Origin: a virus
Taxonomy: Duplodnaviria > Caudoviricetes
Strand: one strand, 5' to 3'
IMG/VR virus record: IMGVR_UViG_2687453780_000005
Span: 32,001 to 96,000 of that record
DNA length: 64,000 nt
The position numbers and the translations under genes are program-made. How positions within the stretch are numbered: position 1 is the first letter of the stretch; each line of letters opens with the position of its first letter. Positions 14,631-55,652 of this stretch are shown here, piece by piece. The notes below the pieces were generated by a model. The model saw only the letters and a program-made list of their open reading frames with translations, was not told where the DNA came from and ran no database searches.

Positions 14631-14933
14631 TTATCTACAAGCCTTTTGATACTTGCATCCATTTTTAATTCTATTTTTAATTCCGGTTGCAATTTTAAAA
14701 GTAGGATAAATACATTTTTCTAAATTTAATTCTGGATTTCCAAATAAGTTTTTGCCCTGCATAGGTTTTCGTTCAACCAAAGTAAATCTTCCAAGCTTGG
14801 GAATTTCAACTTCTTCTCCGCAGATGAGTTTCTCTGCTGTCAAACTAGAAGAAGTATTAAAAACTTCTTCTACAGCATAATCAGATAACATGCACCTCTT
14901 TGCAACTTCTTTCACAAATTCGCTTTTATTCAA
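14631..14933 (-). CDS. Second, divergent HU/IHF family protein
   Basis: MNKSEFVKEVA...VEIPKLGRF...PTFK. Confidence 0.85.
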   Translation of the reverse strand: MNKSEFVKEVAKRCMLSDYAVEEVFNTSSSLTAEKLICGEEVEIPKLGRFTLVERKPMQGKNLFGNPELNLEKCIYPTFKIATGIKNRIKNGCKYQKACR

Positions 14934-17754
14934 ATAATTTACCTCCGTATCTTTTAAATTTTATATTAAAGATATCAATATCTCCCTCGTTTGATTCTTC
15001 TATGTATGTATTTGATGGTGTTAGTTCATACATTATTTCTGTCAAGACATCGTTCTCATAGTTAAATAGTGCATAAAATAATAACTTCGAAATATGTGAA
15101 TACTTTTTCATGTCTACATATTCTATCAAGGATAGCATCGTATGTTTGTTAATTTTCAATTTACTGATATCGTATACTAATGATTCCCTATATCGATCAG
15201 TTAATAGAAACTTTTCAGATGGAGCATAGTATTCTTTCGACCATATAGCATTAATTGAAGAATTAGTAGACTCGCACATTTTCACAATTTTATTGAGCTG
15301 TTTTTTGTTTACTGAATTTTGACTGAAATCACCAAACCTAAAACACGATGATAATGGAGTAAAATCGCTTCCTTTTGTTTTATCTGAACGATATCTATTA
15401 ACTTCTTTCAATAAATAATCCATTGCTGTTTGGTGATAGTTATATTTCTTTTTATCAGGATTCCGATATCCCTTGGTCTGAGCTATAAACCCTATAAAAG
15501 CTGGTTTTATTGCTTTGTTATTAAATGTACGTCTATCCCACTTGTCTTTTATCGTCTTAAGTTCTCTTACAGAAGAAATATCAAATTCCTTTTTCGCTTT
15601 ATCAATTTCAATACATGACAATACATTTAGAATACAGATATCGTGATATATCTCTTCAATGTCTTTATAGCATTCGGCTAAAGATTTTCTGGATCTATTT
15701 ATGTAATCCCACATCAAAGTATTTAATTCCTGGGATAAATTGACTATCTCACCGATTTTGTTTTCGCTTGTTTTGTAATCCAAGTCCGCCTTATCTGCAT
15801 TTGTGTAGTGTCTTTGAGATTTCTTGGCGGTGACACGATTGGCTGGAACCTTGAAAAAATCGTAATTCTTTAAGGCAGCATCAATTAATATCTCATTGTC
15901 GGTTATTATCATCTGATCGGAATCGAAGTCAGCTCCGCTTAATCGTTCTAAGATATTTTCTCCGATAGAGTTAATACAAACAATTTCATCTGTTAAATTA
16001 AAGTATTTATCAATTAGATCATGCTGCATGTTGGTTGATACCAAAATATTCGATGTTGATATATGTGGGCTACGGCAACCTAAGACTTTTTTACCATACT
16101 TATATCGAGTGGTATGGATATGTCCAGATGGGAGAGATGTAGTTCCGTCAAATTTCCCGATACTATGGAGCAACATTTCAAATGGATTTCCAAATAATAC
16201 AGAATAATTACCATCAATTAAAATATGGCCTTTTTTAATATTTTTTAAGTAAGCTTTGCATGTTTCCTTTTTAAAATCATAATAATATTTAGTGTCATAA
16301 AATGTATCTGAAAGATTCATCATAGTGTAAATAATATCATTCTTATCTTTAAATACATTGCTCAATTCTTCTCCATCGTCTACCGCACACTTAACATGAT
16401 ATTTTAAAACATCACTATCTGTATTTAACAGATTTACATATTCCAGAGACGGCTTTAGCAGCGTATGCACCTCATCTGATGATAGCTGTAGTGTATTTAA
16501 TAACTGGTAATGAGTTTGAACCATCCTGCCATCAAAGAAGTGTGTCTTTTTTTCATGCTTTACTATGCTAAATGTAGAGTCTATATTATTAAGCCATTGC
16601 TCGATAGGAGCAAATTTTATGTATTTTATGCTATTTGGAGTTGTAATAAGTTTTATGTCGCGAATATCTCTTGCAAGTGTAATACTATCTTTATGTAGTT
16701 GCGAAATATTGGTAATGTTATTATCTTCAAACCATTTTTGTATATTTGTATTAAAACAGCATGATTTAAAAAATCTATTTCTCAAAAGAACCATTCCATA
16801 TTTTGAATAGTCACCAAGAAGACTGATATCTATCAAAGACTGTCCATCGAATATTGAGTTGGATATCTCAACACTACCTTCTTGCACCGATATCTTCTTT
16901 TCATCGTCCATTTCTACGATAATAGAATCTTCAGAAAATACGCTATCGTAATCTGGGATTATTAATATATTTTTATGATCTATCGTGAGTAAGTCTATAG
17001 CACTGCTTGTTGGCAATGATATATAAGACTCGAAGGCGGCTAAATCAATCAAATCTCCTTCATTAATATCAAGTCCACATAGATCCCATTCGTGAATGTC
17101 TGCGTATAGTCTTTCGTCTACAAATAGACACTTTCCGACTCTCGATGATCCAGATGTCCTTTTTAAACGAATATAATGTGTGCCATTACAATTAAATCCA
17201 TTTTCATATAGGTAATCTCTTAGTTCTTTTTTTGTATATGAGACTTGCACTGTTTTGACGGTATATACTTGATTTCCATACCTATCTTCTTCAAAATTAA
17301 AACCATCTGGTAGCTCGAAACGGGTGATTTCTCTGGTGGGAGTGAGAGCTACAACTCCTACTATAACGCCATCATCTAAGGCTATATTGTCTGTAAAATG
17401 AAGATCGTCTAGTAAATATCCATCCATAACATATGTATTGGCTTTGACCTTATTAAAATCTTTGCTACTATACTTAAAAGTTACATTTATAATTTTATCA
17501 GTAAATTCTTTCCCATTGTGTGTAAAAGTGAATGTATCGCTTTTATCGTAAATGCGACTTACAATCTCTCTTATTTTTTCACTATCAAGGCTAAAATCCA
17601 GTGAGTTAATAAACCGATTGAAATTCACATCACCCTTCTTTGTCAATAATCTATAGCCTATTTTATTTTTCTTTTCGTCTAAAAAATTGTTTGCAAGGAA
17701 CAAATCCTTCGCATCAACGCTTGGTATATAAATACAATTTCTTTTTGACTGCAA
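14926..17754 (-). CDS. YonO-like single-subunit two-barrel (RdRP-fold) DNA-dependent RNA polymerase
   Basis: 942 aa; RTSGSSRVGKCLF, DGQSLID, LLRNRFFK, CRSPH, catalytic RLSGADFDSD, EIDKAK. Confidence 0.85.
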   Translation of the reverse strand: MQSKRNCIYIPSVDAKDLFLANNFLDEKKNKIGYRLLTKKGDVNFNRFINSLDFSLDSEKIREIVSRIYDKSDTFTFTHNGKEFTDKIINVTFKYSSKDFNKVKANTYVMDGYLLDDLHFTDNIALDDGVIVGVVALTPTREITRFELPDGFNFEEDRYGNQVYTVKTVQVSYTKKELRDYLYENGFNCNGTHYIRLKRTSGSSRVGKCLFVDERLYADIHEWDLCGLDINEGDLIDLAAFESYISLPTSSAIDLLTIDHKNILIIPDYDSVFSEDSIIVEMDDEKKISVQEGSVEISNSIFDGQSLIDISLLGDYSKYGMVLLRNRFFKSCCFNTNIQKWFEDNNITNISQLHKDSITLARDIRDIKLITTPNSIKYIKFAPIEQWLNNIDSTFSIVKHEKKTHFFDGRMVQTHYQLLNTLQLSSDEVHTLLKPSLEYVNLLNTDSDVLKYHVKCAVDDGEELSNVFKDKNDIIYTMMNLSDTFYDTKYYYDFKKETCKAYLKNIKKGHILIDGNYSVLFGNPFEMLLHSIGKFDGTTSLPSGHIHTTRYKYGKKVLGCRSPHISTSNILVSTNMQHDLIDKYFNLTDEIVCINSIGENILERLSGADFDSDQMIITDNEILIDAALKNYDFFKVPANRVTAKKSQRHYTNADKADLDYKTSENKIGEIVNLSQELNTLMWDYINRSRKSLAECYKDIEEIYHDICILNVLSCIEIDKAKKEFDISSVRELKTIKDKWDRRTFNNKAIKPAFIGFIAQTKGYRNPDKKKYNYHQTAMDYLLKEVNRYRSDKTKGSDFTPLSSCFRFGDFSQNSVNKKQLNKIVKMCESTNSSINAIWSKEYYAPSEKFLLTDRYRESLVYDISKLKINKHTMLSLIEYVDMKKYSHISKLLFYALFNYENDVLTEIMYELTPSNTYIEESNEGDIDIFNIKFKRYGGKLFE

Positions 17755-21869: not shown

Positions 21870-21936
21870 GTTTTCTTTATTTGCTTGTATGAATCATAAC
21901 ACTTACGGATTATGATGTCAATAGTTTTCTTTATTT
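21870..21936 (-). promoter_or_regulatory. Leftward sigmaA promoter bracketed by two AAATAAAGAAAAC boxes
   Basis: TTGACA(21921-16)-17 bp-TATGAT(21898-93); boxes at 21924-36 and 21870-82. Confidence 0.85.
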
Positions 21937-23458
21937 ATTTGTAATTATATTTTCAAACAATTGGTTAGGTAAAATTATAAGATGTGAAAATGGTGAGTTC
22001 GGCAGATAGGATTATTTTTTGCATTATATAGGAAACAAATGCTTATCCTGTAATGGTTTGTTGGGTGTGGGAGTAGTAAGAGAGTAGTGATCGGAGATAT
22101 GGGTTTTGTGAAAATAGGGGTGAGTTCGTAAAGATGCTTATTTTATAAGGGTTTGCTTGACTTCAGAGAGGGGAAAGTGCTGATTTTGAATTGTCTGTAA
22201 ATTCAATTTGGCCTTATTTTATATGTATTCCTTCGAACTCACTAACGAACTCATTTTGTGTGATTTTGGAAATTGTATAGACAATTAGATAGTGTACAGG
22301 GTGGTAATGTAGTTGAGACATGAAATTATGATGATTTTATTGTATCTGATAATTTGATTAATTGTAGTTGTAATATGTGGGGATTTTATGATAAAAGAGG
22401 TTGAAATTTCAACTTGATGTGTGAGTAGAACTGATATGCGGTATTCCGACACGTAAAAACAGTCTCAAAATGTAAATATACCCCGGTCATGGGTAATGAA
22501 ATAATATACAACAAATAGGCATGTTAACCTATGCGTAATAGGGCATAATTACATGTTCAATGTATACCACTATATATGTCTGCGTTAAACTCTTGTTTAG
22601 TGCAATGATAGTAAAAATAGTGCATAGTTTGCAATGGTTAAATATATGCATATTGTACAAGCGAATGATATGATTATAGAATTGTAGCTAATTGTATGAA
22701 TGAAATTGATATTGACAGATAATTATGATGGCGCAATGATGGATAAATGAATTACTGTAGCAGGTAAAGGGGCGGTGGTTACGATGCCTTTATGCGACCA
22801 GGTATCGTCAAGTCTGATATAGCTAGTAAGTTTGGCAAGGTTCGTTGTAATTAAATACTACAAGTGTAATATTAACAATAATATAAAAAGATACTAACTA
22901 TAATTTATATACTAACTTACTATAATATACTTAGTATCATATCAACCCTAACATCTTTGTTTCATGGTATATAAACAATACTAACTGCATAAAAGATAGT
23001 AAGTGTAAAAAAGATAATAACTATATAAAATATACTTAGTATAAAAAAGATACCATTGTGTCATATCAAGGTTTCTTAGAATTTACATGATTATACCTTA
23101 TTCATTTTACCACTCGGCCATCATATTATCATACACTCCACAACACATTTAAACGCTTAATTTCTCATCGTAATCGCATACCCTTACACTTTATCATTCA
23201 TGCCATTACAAGCTGTATATGAGCCAAATAACAACACGTACAATCAATGCAACACCATCATATCCCATCAATAATTAATCTATATCAATCAGTCATATTC
23301 CGACACATTCCATCATACCATATCAATATCAGCGACATGATATCCAATAGTAACCAAAAAATATACAGTTTATTCCATATTTCTTACTTGACAAAGTCGA
23401 ACATACATACTATTATTGAACTCACAGACAAAGAACATACGTACTAGTGTTATGGCTT

Positions 23459-24314: not shown

Positions 24315-24533
24315 ATGAGTAACAAAGAACGCATTATGCAGTTAATAGATGGTGTACCAGACAGCAAACTTGTATTTGTGGTTGACATGCTGGAATCACT
24401 AAAAGCATATGCAGGGGAATCCATAGAACCTGATAGCTGGGATTTACAAATGATTAAACAGGCAGAATTATTAAACGATGGCGAAACAGTAACGTTTGAT
24501 GATTTATGCAACGAATTAGGCATTAATCTATGA
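24315..24533 (+). CDS. Putative antitoxin
   Basis: 72 aa acidic protein ending ETVTFDDLCNELGI; overlaps toxin start (ATGA). Confidence 0.75.
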   Translation: MSNKERIMQLIDGVPDSKLVFVVDMLESLKAYAGESIEPDSWDLQMIKQAELLNDGETVTFDDLCNELGINL

Positions 24534-24784
24534 GTGGTTACAAGACTATTTTTGAGAAAGCAGCTATAAAGTTTCTAAAAAAACAAACCCCTAAAATGCA
24601 AAGTATGATTCTGATGGCAATTTCAAAATTACCTGAAGGTACAGATATTAAGAAGTTGCAAGGTTATGAATTATATCGTATGCGTGTTGGAAATGTAAGA
24701 GTGATTTATTCAATTGATAATGACGTAAAAATCATTAACATAGAAAACATTGACAACCGAGGACAAATATACAAAAGATATTAA
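24530..24784 (+). CDS. relE: RelE/ParE family toxin
   Basis: DIKKLQG..YRMRVGNVRVIY...DNRGQIYK. Confidence 0.9.
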   Translation: MSGYKTIFEKAAIKFLKKQTPKMQSMILMAISKLPEGTDIKKLQGYELYRMRVGNVRVIYSIDNDVKIINIENIDNRGQIYKRY

Positions 24785-30698: not shown

Positions 30699-32351
30699 AT
30701 GACAATGTTTATATCAAATGCAGATTTTTACCCAACGCCAGGGCATCTTATTGAAAAGATGCTCTTTTCTTTGGACTTTAACAGGATCAAAAGTATCTTG
30801 GAGCCAGAGGCCGGGAAAGGGGACATAGTAGAAAGATTAAAGGAAAAAGAAAAGTCTATGTCTGACCGTTGGCAGAAGGTTTCCTTTGACATCGATTGCG
30901 TAGAGCAAGACGAAAATTTACGTCATATTCTCAAAGGTAAAGGATATCGGCTTGTACACAATGATTTTTTAACCTATGAGACTATGAAAGAATATGACCT
31001 TATAATCATGAATCCTCCTTTCTCTAATGGCTGTAAGCACCTTTTAAAAGCCTTAGAAATGCAGAAACGGAACGGCGGTGCTATTGTTTGTTTACTTAAT
31101 GCTGAAACGCTTAAAAATCAGTGTAATAATGATCGGATAATGCTTACTAGGCTGTTAGAGGAATACAATTCAGATATTGAGTATATAAAAAATGCATTTA
31201 CCGATGCAGAGCGAAAGACAGGCGTTGAAGTTGCCTTAATAAAGGTGCAGCTTCCAGTGGTCAAAAGACAATCATTCATCTTTGACGGACTTAAAAGGGC
31301 ACAGGAACAAAGAGAGTGTGAACAAGCAGAAAGCGCCTATTTGGCTGAAAATGATTTGTTTAAATCTATAGTGGGGCAATACAAATTAGAGGTAGAAGCA
31401 GGCATAAAACTGATAAAAGAATACTACGCTATGTATCCTTATATTATGACTTCTTTCGGTAAAGATGAAAAAACTGGCGAGACAGTTCAGAAGGGCGGAT
31501 GTATCCTGGATCTTGATTTGTCAATAAATACTGACAAATACAAAAGTGGTTTGTCTGTAAATGGCTATATCCGGGAAGTACGTGGCAAATACTGGACAGC
31601 GTTATTCCAAAATGAAAAATTTATTGGGCAGCTCACCGGAAACTTGCGGCAAGATTTTTATAATAGACTTGAAGATTTAAAAGACTATGACTTCTCTTTG
31701 TATAATATTTATGAATTAAAAATTGAGATGCAGAAGAAAGTAGTGACCGGGATAGAAGATACTATTATAGCTTTATTTGATGAACTAAGCCATAAACACT
31801 ATTGGGATAAAGATACTTCTAGCAACATTCACTATTATAACGGCTGGAAGACAAATAAAAGCTGGTTTATTAATGAAAAGGTTATTATTCCATTATCCGG
31901 TTGGGATTCAATATGGAACCAATTCAGGATTAACGATTATCAGATTGTAGAGAAGTTGCAAGATATTGAAAAATGTTTCAACTATCTTGACGGTGGATTA
32001 ACTGAGGCCATAGATCTAAAGGAAACGTTGGAGTTTTCTCAAGAATATGGAGAAACAAGAAATATCACGTTGAAGTATTTCAACATAACATTTTACAAAA
32101 AGGGAACTTGTCACATTATATTTACCAATCCTGAACTTTTAAAAAAGTTCAATATTTTTGGATCACAGAAGAAAGGCTGGCTCCCTCCTTCTTATGGCAA
32201 GAAGAAATATAAAGACATGACAGCGGAAGAAAAAACCGTTGTGAACGAATTTGAGGGAGAAAAAGAGTATGCCAAGGTAATGAATAACACAAAGTATTAT
32301 TTGTTTGATGGAGACAGAAGCATGAACTTGCTAGAAGATAAAACAGCATAA
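30699..32351 (+). CDS. N6-adenine DNA methyltransferase, DUF4942-type
   Basis: DFYPTP, LEPEAGKG, IIMNPPF, YFNITFYKKGTCHI. Confidence 0.88.
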   Translation: MTMFISNADFYPTPGHLIEKMLFSLDFNRIKSILEPEAGKGDIVERLKEKEKSMSDRWQKVSFDIDCVEQDENLRHILKGKGYRLVHNDFLTYETMKEYDLIIMNPPFSNGCKHLLKALEMQKRNGGAIVCLLNAETLKNQCNNDRIMLTRLLEEYNSDIEYIKNAFTDAERKTGVEVALIKVQLPVVKRQSFIFDGLKRAQEQRECEQAESAYLAENDLFKSIVGQYKLEVEAGIKLIKEYYAMYPYIMTSFGKDEKTGETVQKGGCILDLDLSINTDKYKSGLSVNGYIREVRGKYWTALFQNEKFIGQLTGNLRQDFYNRLEDLKDYDFSLYNIYELKIEMQKKVVTGIEDTIIALFDELSHKHYWDKDTSSNIHYYNGWKTNKSWFINEKVIIPLSGWDSIWNQFRINDYQIVEKLQDIEKCFNYLDGGLTEAIDLKETLEFSQEYGETRNITLKYFNITFYKKGTCHIIFTNPELLKKFNIFGSQKKGWLPPSYGKKKYKDMTAEEKTVVNEFEGEKEYAKVMNNTKYYLFDGDRSMNLLEDKTA

Positions 32352-38747: not shown

Positions 38748-39776
38748 ATGACATATCACGAACAGAATGATATCCAGAATATAAAAAAACTTAGAAGTAT
38801 TATATCCGCTTTGCCAGCTTATTGTGAAGACTTCTTTCGAGGAATCGAGCCGAGAACTTCTTCCAAGACAAGGATTGCTTATGCCGGTTATTTAAGGCTC
38901 TTCTTTGATTATTTAATTAGAAGCAGTAAAGCTACAAATATGGAGTCAATTACTCTTGATGTGTTGGAAAACCTGAAAGTCATTGATTTTGAAAAATATA
39001 TGGAATGGCTAAAATGTTGGAGTGATGATTCAGGGAATGAAAATACAAACGGGGAATATAGCCTAAAGAGCAAAATATCGGCATTAAGAGCATTCTACAA
39101 ATATCTTTATCAGAATGAGAGGATAAAGAATAACGTAGCGTCGCTTGTGCAGCTTCCCAAATTGCATGACAAAGAAATAGTACGTCTTGACAGTGACGAA
39201 ATGAAAGCATTTATCCAGGTTGTAGAAACTGGTGAAGGTTTAGAAGGAAGAGAACGTGCCTTCTTTGAATTGACCCGGAAGCGAGACTTAGCAATAATTA
39301 TGTTGCTGCTCACTACGGGAATCCGTGTTTCAGAATGTGTTGGTTTAGACATCAAAGATGCGGATTTCAAAAAAAGCGGGATTAGAATATACCGGAAGGG
39401 AGGAAAAGAAGAAACCGTATATTTTAGCGATGATGCCAGAGAAGTCTTAGAATCTTATATAGAAGAAAGAAAACAAGCAGAGGCAATCAAAGGGCATGAA
39501 AATGCTCTATTTTTATCTTTGCAGAACAAACGGATATCAACCAGAAGCGTAGAAGATTTAATTCCTAAGTATGCAAGGTTGGCAGGAATCCAGAAGAAGG
39601 TTACTCCTCATACACTACGTAGAAGCTATGGAACGGCCTTATATAACGCCACAGGGGACATTTACCTAGTCGCTGGTACATTGGGCCACGCAGATGTGAA
39701 CACCGCCAAACGGCACTATGTGGCATTAGAAGACGAGAAAAAAAGAGAAAATAGGAACGCTGTTAAACTGAGATAG
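38748..39776 (+). CDS. Tyrosine recombinase (XerC/XerS-like), catalytically intact
   Basis: TGIRVSE (R), RKGGK (K), HTLRR (H-x-x-R), LGHAD (H), HY (Y). Confidence 0.93.
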   Translation: MTYHEQNDIQNIKKLRSIISALPAYCEDFFRGIEPRTSSKTRIAYAGYLRLFFDYLIRSSKATNMESITLDVLENLKVIDFEKYMEWLKCWSDDSGNENTNGEYSLKSKISALRAFYKYLYQNERIKNNVASLVQLPKLHDKEIVRLDSDEMKAFIQVVETGEGLEGRERAFFELTRKRDLAIIMLLLTTGIRVSECVGLDIKDADFKKSGIRIYRKGGKEETVYFSDDAREVLESYIEERKQAEAIKGHENALFLSLQNKRISTRSVEDLIPKYARLAGIQKKVTPHTLRRSYGTALYNATGDIYLVAGTLGHADVNTAKRHYVALEDEKKRENRNAVKLR

Positions 39777-42590: not shown

Positions 42591-42659
42591 AAATAAAGAA
42601 AACTGTTGACATGGTGTGAAATTAGTGATATAGTTACGTCAGATGGAAATAAAGAAAAC
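42591..42659 (+). promoter_or_regulatory. sigmaA promoter bracketed by two AAATAAAGAAAAC boxes
   Basis: Box 42591-603, TTGACA 42606-17 bp-TATAGT 42629, box 42647-59. Confidence 0.85.
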
Positions 42660-42698
42660 CAAAAAAACAGATTGGTATGAAAAGGAGGATATGTATAA

Positions 42699-43250
42699 GT
42701 GTCAACAGTAAAAGTGATTGGAAATAATGTGTGTTTATTAAATAATGATAGGGTGGTTCACAGCAGGAGCATAGCGGAAACTATATATTGCGGAGAGGTG
42801 AGATATGCATATCTTCCCAAAATGCCTACTGTTGAGGGATTAAAGTTCCACATTCAAGAGAAAGCAAGACCTGTTTTGATCGTATCAAACAACGCTAACA
42901 ATAGAGCCACCAACGGTAACGTCCAAGTTATTCCGTTTACATCAAAAGACAAGACCAGTTTGCCAACTCATTTATCATTCAAGGCAGGAGAATTTGGGCT
43001 TGCAGAAGATTCAATTTTGATGGCCGAGTGTGAGACGCAGATTCCAGCAATGTTTGTTTTTGAAAAAATCGGCGAAGTAAATGATAATAAAATTATTGAA
43101 GATATCGTCCAAACGATAATTATTCAGCATGGCTTGTTTGCAAAACTTATGAAAAAGAGATATAATAAGTCGAATGTGAACCGATCAGTGTCTGATTATA
43201 AGGTTATCGAAGGGAGAAAACATAATGACTTCGAAAGAAATATTGGATAA
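42699..43250 (+). CDS. MazF/PemK family endoribonuclease
   Basis: QEKARPVLIVSNNANN...VQVIPFTSK...LPTH...DSILMAE. Confidence 0.85.
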   Translation: MSTVKVIGNNVCLLNNDRVVHSRSIAETIYCGEVRYAYLPKMPTVEGLKFHIQEKARPVLIVSNNANNRATNGNVQVIPFTSKDKTSLPTHLSFKAGEFGLAEDSILMAECETQIPAMFVFEKIGEVNDNKIIEDIVQTIIIQHGLFAKLMKKRYNKSNVNRSVSDYKVIEGRKHNDFERNIG

Positions 43251-44184
43251 TTTTTCGAAAATAGACTCAAAATCTACAGCAGCAGCAAAATACATCAATG
43301 GACAGAATCCTTTTCAATATGAGGAAGAGTTTGGAGCAGACTTTATTCACTTTACTGATAAGATGATATCAGATATGTTGCTTGAAAAGAAGAGGTATTA
43401 TAGATTATTCTATTTATCGAAAGCAATAACATATTACCGTCAATTCTACGACTACTGTAGGAGTTGTGGATATATTAATAATAATCCTGTAAGCGATAAT
43501 TCCATATATTTTACTTATTCATATATGTTGCAAAAAATTGTTAAACTCGGAAACGTAGAATTATATTCAAGAAATTATATTACAAGTAAATGCAACGGGT
43601 TTGACGAAAATACTCCATATTACAAATCAATTGCACTGTCCATCTATGAAGGTGTTAAAGACTTTAACTCTCTATCTAAAATCAAGTACAGCGATATTGA
43701 TTTTGAAAAAGGTATTATTAAAGTAGCCGATGATCATATAAAAATATCAGAAGAATTGCTTCAGACATATAAAGATATGTATGATATGAATTCCTTTAAG
43801 AATATGTCAAGACAAGAATACTTTTTATTTGATGATTCTATTGATTCTTTAATAAGGCAGTTTCAGAAAAGAGGAGAAGGAAAATCAAGTAATGACTTGG
43901 TTAGATTTGCAAGATTTATGAGTTTAAAAATTGTCGAAACAGGCTTAGACTGTAATTTCATTTATGATTCTGGATTGATATTTAGGTTATCAGAAATTCT
44001 TGGAAAAGAAAGATTATTAGAAATTCTTGAATATGATAGTGGCTTAAGTAAAAAAGAAAAAATAGAAAATAATAAGGCTATGCAAGCTGCCCTTATAAAA
44101 GCAGGAAGCAATCTTCTGTGCAAAAACTTCTTGTTTGACTATAGAGTATATGGCGTTTGTTTGAAAAATAATTTAATAAAGTAA
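43225..44184 (+). CDS. Degenerate tyrosine-recombinase-fold protein, MrpR/YopR-like repressor
   Basis: ALSIYEGVK..SLSKIKYSDIDF box-I remnant lacking catalytic Arg; IYDSG in place of HxxR; 319 aa. Confidence 0.65.
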   Translation: MTSKEILDNFSKIDSKSTAAAKYINGQNPFQYEEEFGADFIHFTDKMISDMLLEKKRYYRLFYLSKAITYYRQFYDYCRSCGYINNNPVSDNSIYFTYSYMLQKIVKLGNVELYSRNYITSKCNGFDENTPYYKSIALSIYEGVKDFNSLSKIKYSDIDFEKGIIKVADDHIKISEELLQTYKDMYDMNSFKNMSRQEYFLFDDSIDSLIRQFQKRGEGKSSNDLVRFARFMSLKIVETGLDCNFIYDSGLIFRLSEILGKERLLEILEYDSGLSKKEKIENNKAMQAALIKAGSNLLCKNFLFDYRVYGVCLKNNLIK

Positions 44185-44265
44185 TCCTTGAGTCTAAACG
44201 TCTATTAATGGCGTTTAAATTCAAGGGATTGAAATAAATAAAGAAAACCATAATGGAGGAATATA

Positions 44266-44592
44266 ATGGCTGAAATCGTTGAAGAGATTTTAAACAATCA
44301 ATCAAGAGGTTGTATAATTAGTATATTTACACCAACCGATAGCGATAAATACTATATGAGAAAATATTGTGCATCAATTGACTGTAATGGTATGCATTTA
44401 ATATTAAAAGATGATAAAAATAATGATTTAAGTATTAGCATTTCTATCGGCAATATTAAACTTCTGAATAAAGAGGAACTTTTTGAAAATTCAATATTAC
44501 TGGATTTTTTGACGGAAGATAATATTAGATATGAAATGTACATAGCCGATTCATTTTACTCATCGGACATGCGGATCAAGCGCCATAATTAA
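44266..44592 (+). CDS. Hypothetical protein (paralog pair member 1)
   Basis: Preceded by AAATAAAGAAAAC box at 44236. Confidence 0.6.
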   Translation: MAEIVEEILNNQSRGCIISIFTPTDSDKYYMRKYCASIDCNGMHLILKDDKNNDLSISISIGNIKLLNKEELFENSILLDFLTEDNIRYEMYIADSFYSSDMRIKRHN

Positions 44593-44648: not shown

Positions 44649-44972
44649 ATGATTTCTTTCAAAGAACTAATAATGTCAAATCAATTAAAGGACATAGTTA
44701 TTCATGTGGATTATATGTCAGGTGAATGTGTGGAAGTTGATATAAAAAAATATAAGCTTTTTAAATGCGAAGAACCAGGACAAGCACTGGTGGTGGGCGA
44801 TACACCGATTCCATCAATTAGAATATTTACAGATAATGTGGAGCTGTTGAGTAAGGAAGAAATGCTGGGAAAAGTAATTGCAATAGAAGCCAGGCACAAA
44901 GATACATATTATAACTTTTACATACATAGTGGGCTTGACTTTACGAAAACAACAATTGAAGATGTTGCTTGA
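44649..44972 (+). CDS. Hypothetical protein (paralog pair member 2)
   Basis: Preceded by AAATAAAGAAAAC box at 44620. Confidence 0.6.
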   Translation: MISFKELIMSNQLKDIVIHVDYMSGECVEVDIKKYKLFKCEEPGQALVVGDTPIPSIRIFTDNVELLSKEEMLGKVIAIEARHKDTYYNFYIHSGLDFTKTTIEDVA

Positions 44973-55580: not shown

Positions 55581-55652
55581 AAATAAAGAAAACTGTTGAC
55601 ATGCACCGAGATAGGTGTTATCATTATGAATGTACAGATAAATAAAGAAAAC
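55581..55652 (+). promoter_or_regulatory. sigmaA promoter bracketed by two AAATAAAGAAAAC boxes (upstream of replication module)
   Basis: Box 55581-93, TTGACA 55596-17 bp-TATCAT 55619, box 55640-52. Confidence 0.85.

Follow-up and report, generated by a model that had tools for sequence, protein, structure and literature searches.

In the Bacillus phages SPbeta and phi3T, the first gene of the repressor operon encodes a protein (YopM or phi3T_93) that binds MazE and frees the MazF of the host (PMC10769878, PMC10516654). MazF activity favours lysogeny in phi3T, and the phage proteins AimX and YosL block MazF, permitting lysis (PMC10769878). The SPbeta operon is yopMNOPQR, and its repressor MrpR binds the element SPBRE at the promoter of yopM, thus of its own operon, and at that of yonP (PMC10516654). 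In the case of SroF, long sites are reported to be bound as a monomer (bioRxiv 10.1101/2025.11.27.690993). Here we describe an operon in 64,000 nucleotides of a Caudoviricetes virus (positions 32,001 to 96,000 of IMG/VR record IMGVR_UViG_2687453780_000005; the whole stretch is called the window in the following). This operon starts with a gene for a MazF/PemK protein, open reading frame (ORF) A, which overlaps a gene for a recombinase-fold protein, ORF B. The pairing of these two genes recurs in related phage sequences and is the main subject of this work.

The locus resembles the sroA-F (yopMNOPQR) region of SPbeta and phi3T in several respects. Both have a recombinase-fold, catalytically dead protein of about 320 amino acids (aa), which is the repressor SroF/MrpR there; an asymmetric, A-tract-rich operator (SPBRE there) at distant promoters and at the operon of the repressor itself; an intact tyrosine recombinase gene upstream; and a leftward late block with a YonO-type RNA polymerase, here a probable one, next to rightward early genes. 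In addition, the first operon gene is linked to MazF activity in both. The initial annotation of this DNA had drawn the comparison with SPbeta, and it is an apt one: the first gene frees host MazF there through the MazE-binding YopM, whereas here it is a MazF itself. The two systems also differ just upstream of the repressor. The SPbeta order is yopM-N-O-P-Q-R, in which yopP encodes an integrase and YopQ, the product of the gene just before YopR, is DndB-like, whereas here this position is held by the MazF-like gene. As SPbeta YopQ is DndB-like and not MazF-like, the idea that A is a diverged YopQ was rejected. Furthermore, unlike its counterparts, B lacks a Pfam MrpR match and is detectable in sequence by profile only, and the host belongs to the Clostridia instead of Bacillus. 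Regarding AimR, one single-sequence query with SPbeta YopK, run with no positive control, gave no match in the whole genome.

The second system for comparison is the chromosomal MazEF or EndoAI-EndoA pair. It shares with A the PemK/MazF fold with the conserved catalytic Arg and Thr, and with the operon the arrangement of two overlapping genes behind a promoter with flanking repeats of a protein-binding type. Unlike in MazEF, however, the toxin gene comes first, no MazE/AbrB or ribbon-helix-helix antitoxin is present, about 30 aa at the N-terminus of A form a structured extension, and the sole conserved partner of A is a presumed DNA-binding protein of 319 aa with a recombinase fold. Phage proteins of PHROG 1936 (e.g. 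of Lactobacillus phage 3-521) are also phage-encoded, MazF-like and of similar length. Nevertheless, a search of 50,697 phage records returned at best weak MazF-like matches to A, with 36% identity over about half of the protein, and the annotation of these proteins holds no link to a repressor.

The MazF-type protein and its recombinase-fold partner

The elements of the operon are the following (window coordinates).

42591-42603, plus strand: operator O1, AAATAAAGAAAAC, abutting the -35 box of the A-B promoter
42606-42634, plus strand: A-B promoter, sigma-70-type, TTGACA-17-TATAGT with a TG extension, 11 of 12 consensus matches
42647-42659, plus strand: operator O2, AAATAAAGAAAAC, in the 5' leader between the -10 box and the ribosome-binding site (RBS) of A
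42699-43250, plus strand: ORF A, GTG start, 183 aa, with the RBS GGAGG at 42684-42688, 10 nt upstream
43209-43216, plus strand: RBS of ORF B, GAAGGGAG, read from the sequence, inside the 3' end of ORF A
43225-44184, plus strand: ORF B, ATG start, 319 aa

As had been proposed, ORF A encodes a protein of the MazF/PemK type whose catalytic motifs are intact. It matches Pfam PemK_toxin (PF02452) with 43.3 bits at a cut-off of 23.1 (E 4.7e-11), and it aligns with positions 10-138 of the 188 of the PHROG 1936 profile, 'MazF-like growth inhibitor'. In the alignment to the Bacillus subtilis EndoA/MazF structure from the PDB, R57 falls on EndoA R25 and T90 on EndoA T48. R57, P58, T90 and the LPTH motif are invariant across eight lineages of the window's own clade. 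Because of this invariance, catalysis has apparently been retained, and A is predicted to be an active ribonuclease (RNase). The AlphaFold model of A agrees with this classification: its MazF core, residues 27-148, is an SH3-like barrel of the MazF/Kid/CcdB type, which superimposes on MazF-mt1 and on Staphylococcus aureus MazF with Z scores of 14.2 and 14.1 and root mean square deviations (rmsd) of 2.5-2.6 Å, the best being Z 14.2 at 2.5 Å.

Both extensions of A that had been noted from the sequence were recovered in the model. For the N-terminal one, approximately residues 1-30, the model shows three beta strands at a predicted local distance difference test score (pLDDT) of 84-90, and residues 1-26 lie outside the coverage of any matched MazF structure. 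This extension is found in B-linked MazFs, including all four lineages in which A overlaps B. The C-terminal tail, residues 155-183, is disordered and restricted to these four overlap lineages. As a whole, A is under strong purifying selection: the ratio of nonsynonymous to synonymous substitution rates (dN/dS) is 0.05-0.10 in four pairs, as low as or lower than that of B, and it is 0.21 over the N-terminal extension in the pair of the window and locus L005.

In the case of ORF B, the AlphaFold2 model has a pLDDT of 90. Its closest structure is the DNA-bound SroF of phi3T (9rd5; Z 18.5, rmsd 3.7 Å over 285 residues), followed by SPbeta YopR/MrpR (8bj6, 8bpz and 8a0a; Z 16.0-16.2), whereas true recombinases (XerA, Cre and others) reach Z 12.7 or less; Foldseek gave the identical ranking. 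Identity to SroF and YopR in the structural alignment is 13-14%. At the sequence level, this relationship appeared with an enlarged profile: an exhaustive profile search collected 336 cluster representatives, and a profile of 112 aligned sequences of this family matched YopR by hhalign with 96.9% probability (E 1.7e-10, 248 columns). A profile of nine sequences gave no significant hhalign match to YopR, and neither the single sequence nor this nine-sequence profile found a PDB sequence match. Against Pfam, including MrpR_N_CB (PF22822) and MrpR_C_cat (PF22823), B had no match at E 0.1 or better, whereas YopR matches both families; among the 112 aligned profile matches, 14 carry PF22822. B was also without a PHROG match, and nucleotide and protein searches of the 50,697 phage records returned none.

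The catalytic residues point in the same direction as the fold. The first catalytic arginine of recombinases, Arg-I, is lost, since EGVK145 of B aligns with TGIR of the nearby intact integrases, and the box II motif HxxR is replaced by an invariant Tyr-Asp-Ser-Gly (YDSG) at 247-250. The neighbouring true integrases retain R, HxxR and H. On the basis of the fold ranking, the enlarged-profile comparison, K145 and YDSG, we conclude that B is a remote homologue of the SroF/MrpR superfamily that has lost the Arg-I and box II catalytic residues and lies outside the curated Pfam MrpR families. Hence the initial description of B as an MrpR-like dead recombinase holds for fold and active site and has to be softened to remote homology in terms of sequence. 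The further label of 'master repressor' is a matter of analogy, because the prophage encodes other helix-turn-helix (HTH) regulators; by the same analogy, B would bind DNA and repress at operators. The profile search also returned five proteins of 630-850 aa (P0051, P0070, P0081, P0101 and P0143), in which four to six separate stretches match the N-terminal core-binding (CB) part of the B profile; these appear to be tandem arrays of MrpR-type CB domains.

The reading frames of A and B share 26 nt on the same strand (ORFs 42699-43250 and 43225-44184), exactly the overlap first reported, and this suggests translational coupling of the two genes. The claims that A is the first gene behind an operator-bracketed promoter and that it has no antitoxin gene upstream were confirmed as well: 13-mers starting at 42591 and 42647 surround the promoter, the interval from promoter to A holds no ORF and thus no MazE-type gene directly upstream, and the Pfam search found no MazE/AbrB domain (PF04014) in the prophage. 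A promoter-like site, TTGCAA-17-TATAAT at 43138-43166, lies inside the 3' end of A. As it recurs in only four of eight lineages, a separate B transcript starting there is kept as a weak possibility.

Linkage of the pair and distribution of the operator repeats

Whenever an A-type MazF was found, at about 15 loci and with identities as low as about 36%, a B homologue was the next gene. A synteny survey had been proposed at the outset, and it shows the A-to-B linkage to be conserved. The loci, numbered with the prefix L, are distributed as follows.

A followed by B, near clade: the window, L005, L002/L003, L008 (identical with L022, Lachnospiraceae bacterium 54-53), L009/L010, L011, L012, L013
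A followed by B, IMG/VR contigs of 114-135 kb: L019, L020, L021
A followed by B, metagenome contig: L023
A followed by B, divergent clade with A at 35-43% identity and B recognized by profile only (E 1e-11 to 1e-14): L024-L028, L031, L032
B family without A: L001, L004, L015-18, L109-111

Three MazFs with scores in the same range (L029, L030 and L045) are of canonical length, without the N-terminal extension and without B. The spacing between A and B varies, with overlaps of 26-50 nt in four lineages and gaps of 14-43 nt in four others. Across lineages, identity is 49-79% for A and 26-60% for B, so that B diverges much faster. Altogether, A depends on B and B is independent of A, because A is always accompanied by B, and B is often found without A. 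The recurrence of the pairing in about 15 related phage sequences indicates that the toxin is probably tied to the dormancy switch of the phage. Our literature search turned up no account of a pairing between a phage MazF and a SroF/MrpR-type repressor.

Besides O1 and O2, further operator copies were located in the window.

21870-21936, minus strand: operator pair around a leftward promoter, heading the block with the YonO-like RNA polymerase gene (14926-17754)
44236-44248, plus strand: single operator just upstream of the RBS of ORF 44266-44592, with an equivalent site in L005
44620-44632, plus strand: single operator just upstream of the RBS of ORF 44649-44972
55581-55652, plus strand: operator pair around a promoter upstream of replication genes, DnaB-like and Pol III alpha-like

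A further bracketed promoter lies at 69.1 kb on the plus strand, and all three additional promoters share the layout of the A-B promoter, with one operator next to the -35 box and the other in the leader. The window contains eight exact copies of the 13-mer AAATAAAGAAAAC, where 0.96 would be expected; in 100 shuffles this number was never attained. Genome-wide there are 13 copies, ten in the prophage and three in the remaining 5.8 Mb. The ten prophage copies form four promoter-bracketing pairs, at 21.9 (minus strand), 42.6, 55.6 and 69.1 kb, and two singles. The motif is non-palindromic, which fits the binding of SroF as a monomer (bioRxiv 10.1101/2025.11.27.690993). In related loci the bracket layout is kept and the repeat sequences differ, co-varying with the diverged B; the bracket repeat is TGCTTCAAAATAAACT in L001, TTAAGAAAAC in L005 and AYAAACCTA in L021.

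Prophage setting and neighbouring genes

The source genome comprises 5.93 Mb with a GC content of 43.5%, and the window lies within an island of about 120 kb with 33-35% GC. This island is a prophage with SPbeta-like architecture; genes for a C5 methylase, DnaB, Pol III alpha and the YonO-like RNA polymerase provide an SPbeta-like context. The host is one of the gut Clostridia, probably of the Lachnospiraceae. The remaining features around the operon are listed below.

38748-39776, plus strand: intact tyrosine recombinase, 3 kb upstream of A
44182-44231, plus strand: very stable hairpin starting at the stop codon of B, without a U-tract, -20.6 kcal/mol, z -5.2
44649-44972, plus strand: protein of 107 aa with its own operator copy, without Pfam match

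In several related loci the intact recombinase stands immediately upstream of A or B, giving the order integrase, A, B. The hairpin could be a processing or stabilising element or a palindromic junction site. The 107 aa protein belongs to a family of 105-117 aa found directly after B or one ORF further on in most loci, whether A is present or not (L004:6028-6405, L005:5109-5432, L011:2928-3281, L012:4538-4939, L109:2358-2702 and L110:3535-3882), and is a candidate partner of B. The ESM Atlas returned nothing for it. The position of this family is like that of the Sar antirepressor of phi3T, to which no similarity and for which no SOS box was found. The SOS-box search gave four two-mismatch matches against nine expected, none near the operon, and no LexA-controlled antirepressor was identified. 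The ORF of 108 aa at 44266-44592 was considered as an antitoxin and rejected, as it is conserved only in L005.

On the minus strand at 14926-17754, a protein of 942 aa without Pfam match shows a weak alignment with SPbeta YonO (E 0.002) that covers the region of the acidic catalytic motif, and a better one (E 2e-10) with a protein that has an RNA-dependent RNA polymerase Pfam match and adjoins the B homologue in L004. These alignments make a YonO-type single-subunit RNA polymerase the probable identity of the 942 aa protein, whose gene follows one of the operator-bracketed promoters. Among the small ORFs between window positions 22000 and 57000, only 5 of 70 have a Pfam match at E 0.001 or better, one of them a gp17-like superinfection-exclusion protein (PF17420, E 3.6e-23). 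Near a divergent region, a ParE/RelE-like toxin gene (PF05016, 25 bits; 24530-24784) and a Cro/CI-type HTH gene (PF13443; 25135-25434) lie about 350 nt apart and could constitute either a second toxin-antitoxin module or a further regulator. Finally, the tail-gene block of the same prophage holds a small cassette, locus L107 (G000 C2:3252000-3263000), with the following genes.

L107, 2397-3209, minus strand: Bro-N/ANT antirepressor-type gene
L107, 3482-4084, plus strand: HTH protein of 200 aa
L107, 7134-8114, minus strand: intact tyrosine recombinase
L107, 8384-8668, minus strand: HTH protein of 94 aa

Possible roles of the phage MazF

Our preferred explanation, held with moderate confidence, makes A an accessory, active RNase that is expressed jointly with a SroF-type repressor from an autoregulated operon and acts on the lysogeny side of the switch. 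B would be the SroF/MrpR-type repressor of the phage, with a recombinase fold and without catalytic residues, and would most likely bind the asymmetric AAATAAAGAAAAC, probably as a monomer. Copies of this operator bracket four early promoters, including that of B's own operon. A, as the first gene of this operon and translationally coupled to B, would supply an active MazF-type endoribonuclease, an accessory module gained by one branch of the repressor family. Since A would be made only together with B, MazF activity would accompany repressor synthesis and may favour or stabilise lysogeny, e.g. by cleavage of lytic or host transcripts; B may also restrain A. The phage would thus encode its own equivalent of the host-MazF arm, to which SPbeta and phi3T have indirect access via YopM or phi3T_93.

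Several observations weigh against this explanation. When the survey was started from B, A was present in only two of 13 loci; since A is missing from most of these B cassettes, the repressor switch works without it. A is therefore an optional add-on and cannot be the core of the decision circuit. The earlier interpretation is partly supported, its structural calls being right and the link to the repressor operon conserved. The catalytic Thr has given way to Cys or Val in the divergent clade of A-B loci. All ten prophage operator copies are sense to the downstream genes and six of them lie in 5' leaders, so that a role of the motif at the RNA level is possible. B is taken as the binder of the 13-mer by analogy, in a prophage that has genes for Cro/CI-type HTH proteins and a Bro/ANT antirepressor as well; likewise, we infer that A cleaves RNA, that it is toxic and that it influences lysogeny. 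The host chromosome also has an EndoA-like MazF directly downstream of the alanine racemase gene alr (G000 C1:807837-808157; L006:1474-1839), and the phage copy could accordingly serve another purpose. The 189 nt between alr and this MazF hold no ORF of more than about 13 codons, and the usual mazE/ndoAI gene appears to be missing there.

A different role is conceivable in which A and B form an addiction-type toxin-antitoxin pair in reverse gene order, B neutralising A directly, perhaps through the N-terminal extension, and autoregulating the operon. If the prophage were lost or B inactivated, the RNase would be set free, and the pair would serve mainly for prophage stabilisation or for shut-off on induction, less for the choice between lysis and lysogeny. 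We consider this tentative and rather doubtful, although much of the linkage evidence agrees with it: A never occurs without B while B often occurs without A, the short overlaps and gaps between the genes imply coupled synthesis, operators lie on both sides of the promoter, an arrangement known from autoregulated type II toxin-antitoxin operons, no other antitoxin candidate is conserved beside A, and B-linked MazFs have the N-terminal extension, which the three unlinked canonical ones lack. On the other hand, contact between A and B is conjectural, B is large and well folded (pLDDT 90), unlike typical labile antitoxins, and its faster divergence would be surprising for a protein that must preserve an extensive surface for binding A. 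Moreover, we know of no antitoxin with a recombinase fold. Should B nevertheless double as the antitoxin of A, which we likewise hold to be a possibility of limited probability, inactivation of the repressor (e.g. by an antirepressor) would derepress the lytic promoters and release the endoribonuclease at the same time.

A could also be a prophage defence or superinfection-exclusion moron, an abortive-infection RNase that rides in the one lysogen-expressed operon and stands outside the phage switch. MazF is known as an anti-phage, abortive-infection effector, the PHROGs category of phage MazF-like proteins is 'moron, auxiliary metabolic gene and host takeover', B-family loci often do without A, and the prophage region holds other defence-type cargo, namely the ParE-like toxin and the gp17-like exclusion protein. 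We nonetheless regard this as unlikely: PADLOC gave no match for A, B or the neighbouring genes, A keeps its fixed position between promoter and B together with the coupling even where B is down to 26% identity or profile-only similarity, and something would still be needed to keep the lysogen unharmed. Even less probable, in our view, is that A is a non-toxin subunit of MazF fold which attaches to B and serves as a co-repressor or as a specificity factor, or which binds the operator-bearing leaders as RNA. Co-repression by toxin and antitoxin together is known for the MazF family in classical toxin-antitoxin systems, and both the Cys or Val replacements in the divergent clade and the sense orientation of all operator copies, six of them in leaders just upstream of RBSs, would suit such a subunit; the invariance of Arg57, Thr90 and their motifs in the window's clade and the fact that B works without A in many phages speak against it.

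The reading of A as an accessory RNase coupled to the repressor has the following consequences. A phage family with its own MazF in the repressor operon would be a simpler natural system for studying the effect of MazF cleavage on the lysis-lysogeny switch, as the route to host MazF in SPbeta and phi3T is indirect, through phage proteins that bind MazE or MazF. B would represent an antitoxin class and fold not described before should it neutralise A, and if it doubles as antitoxin, repressor and toxin would form one switch in which loss of the prophage would kill the cell. In addition, the locus extends the SroF/MrpR-type recombinase-fold repressors from Bacillus phages to large prophages of gut Clostridia.

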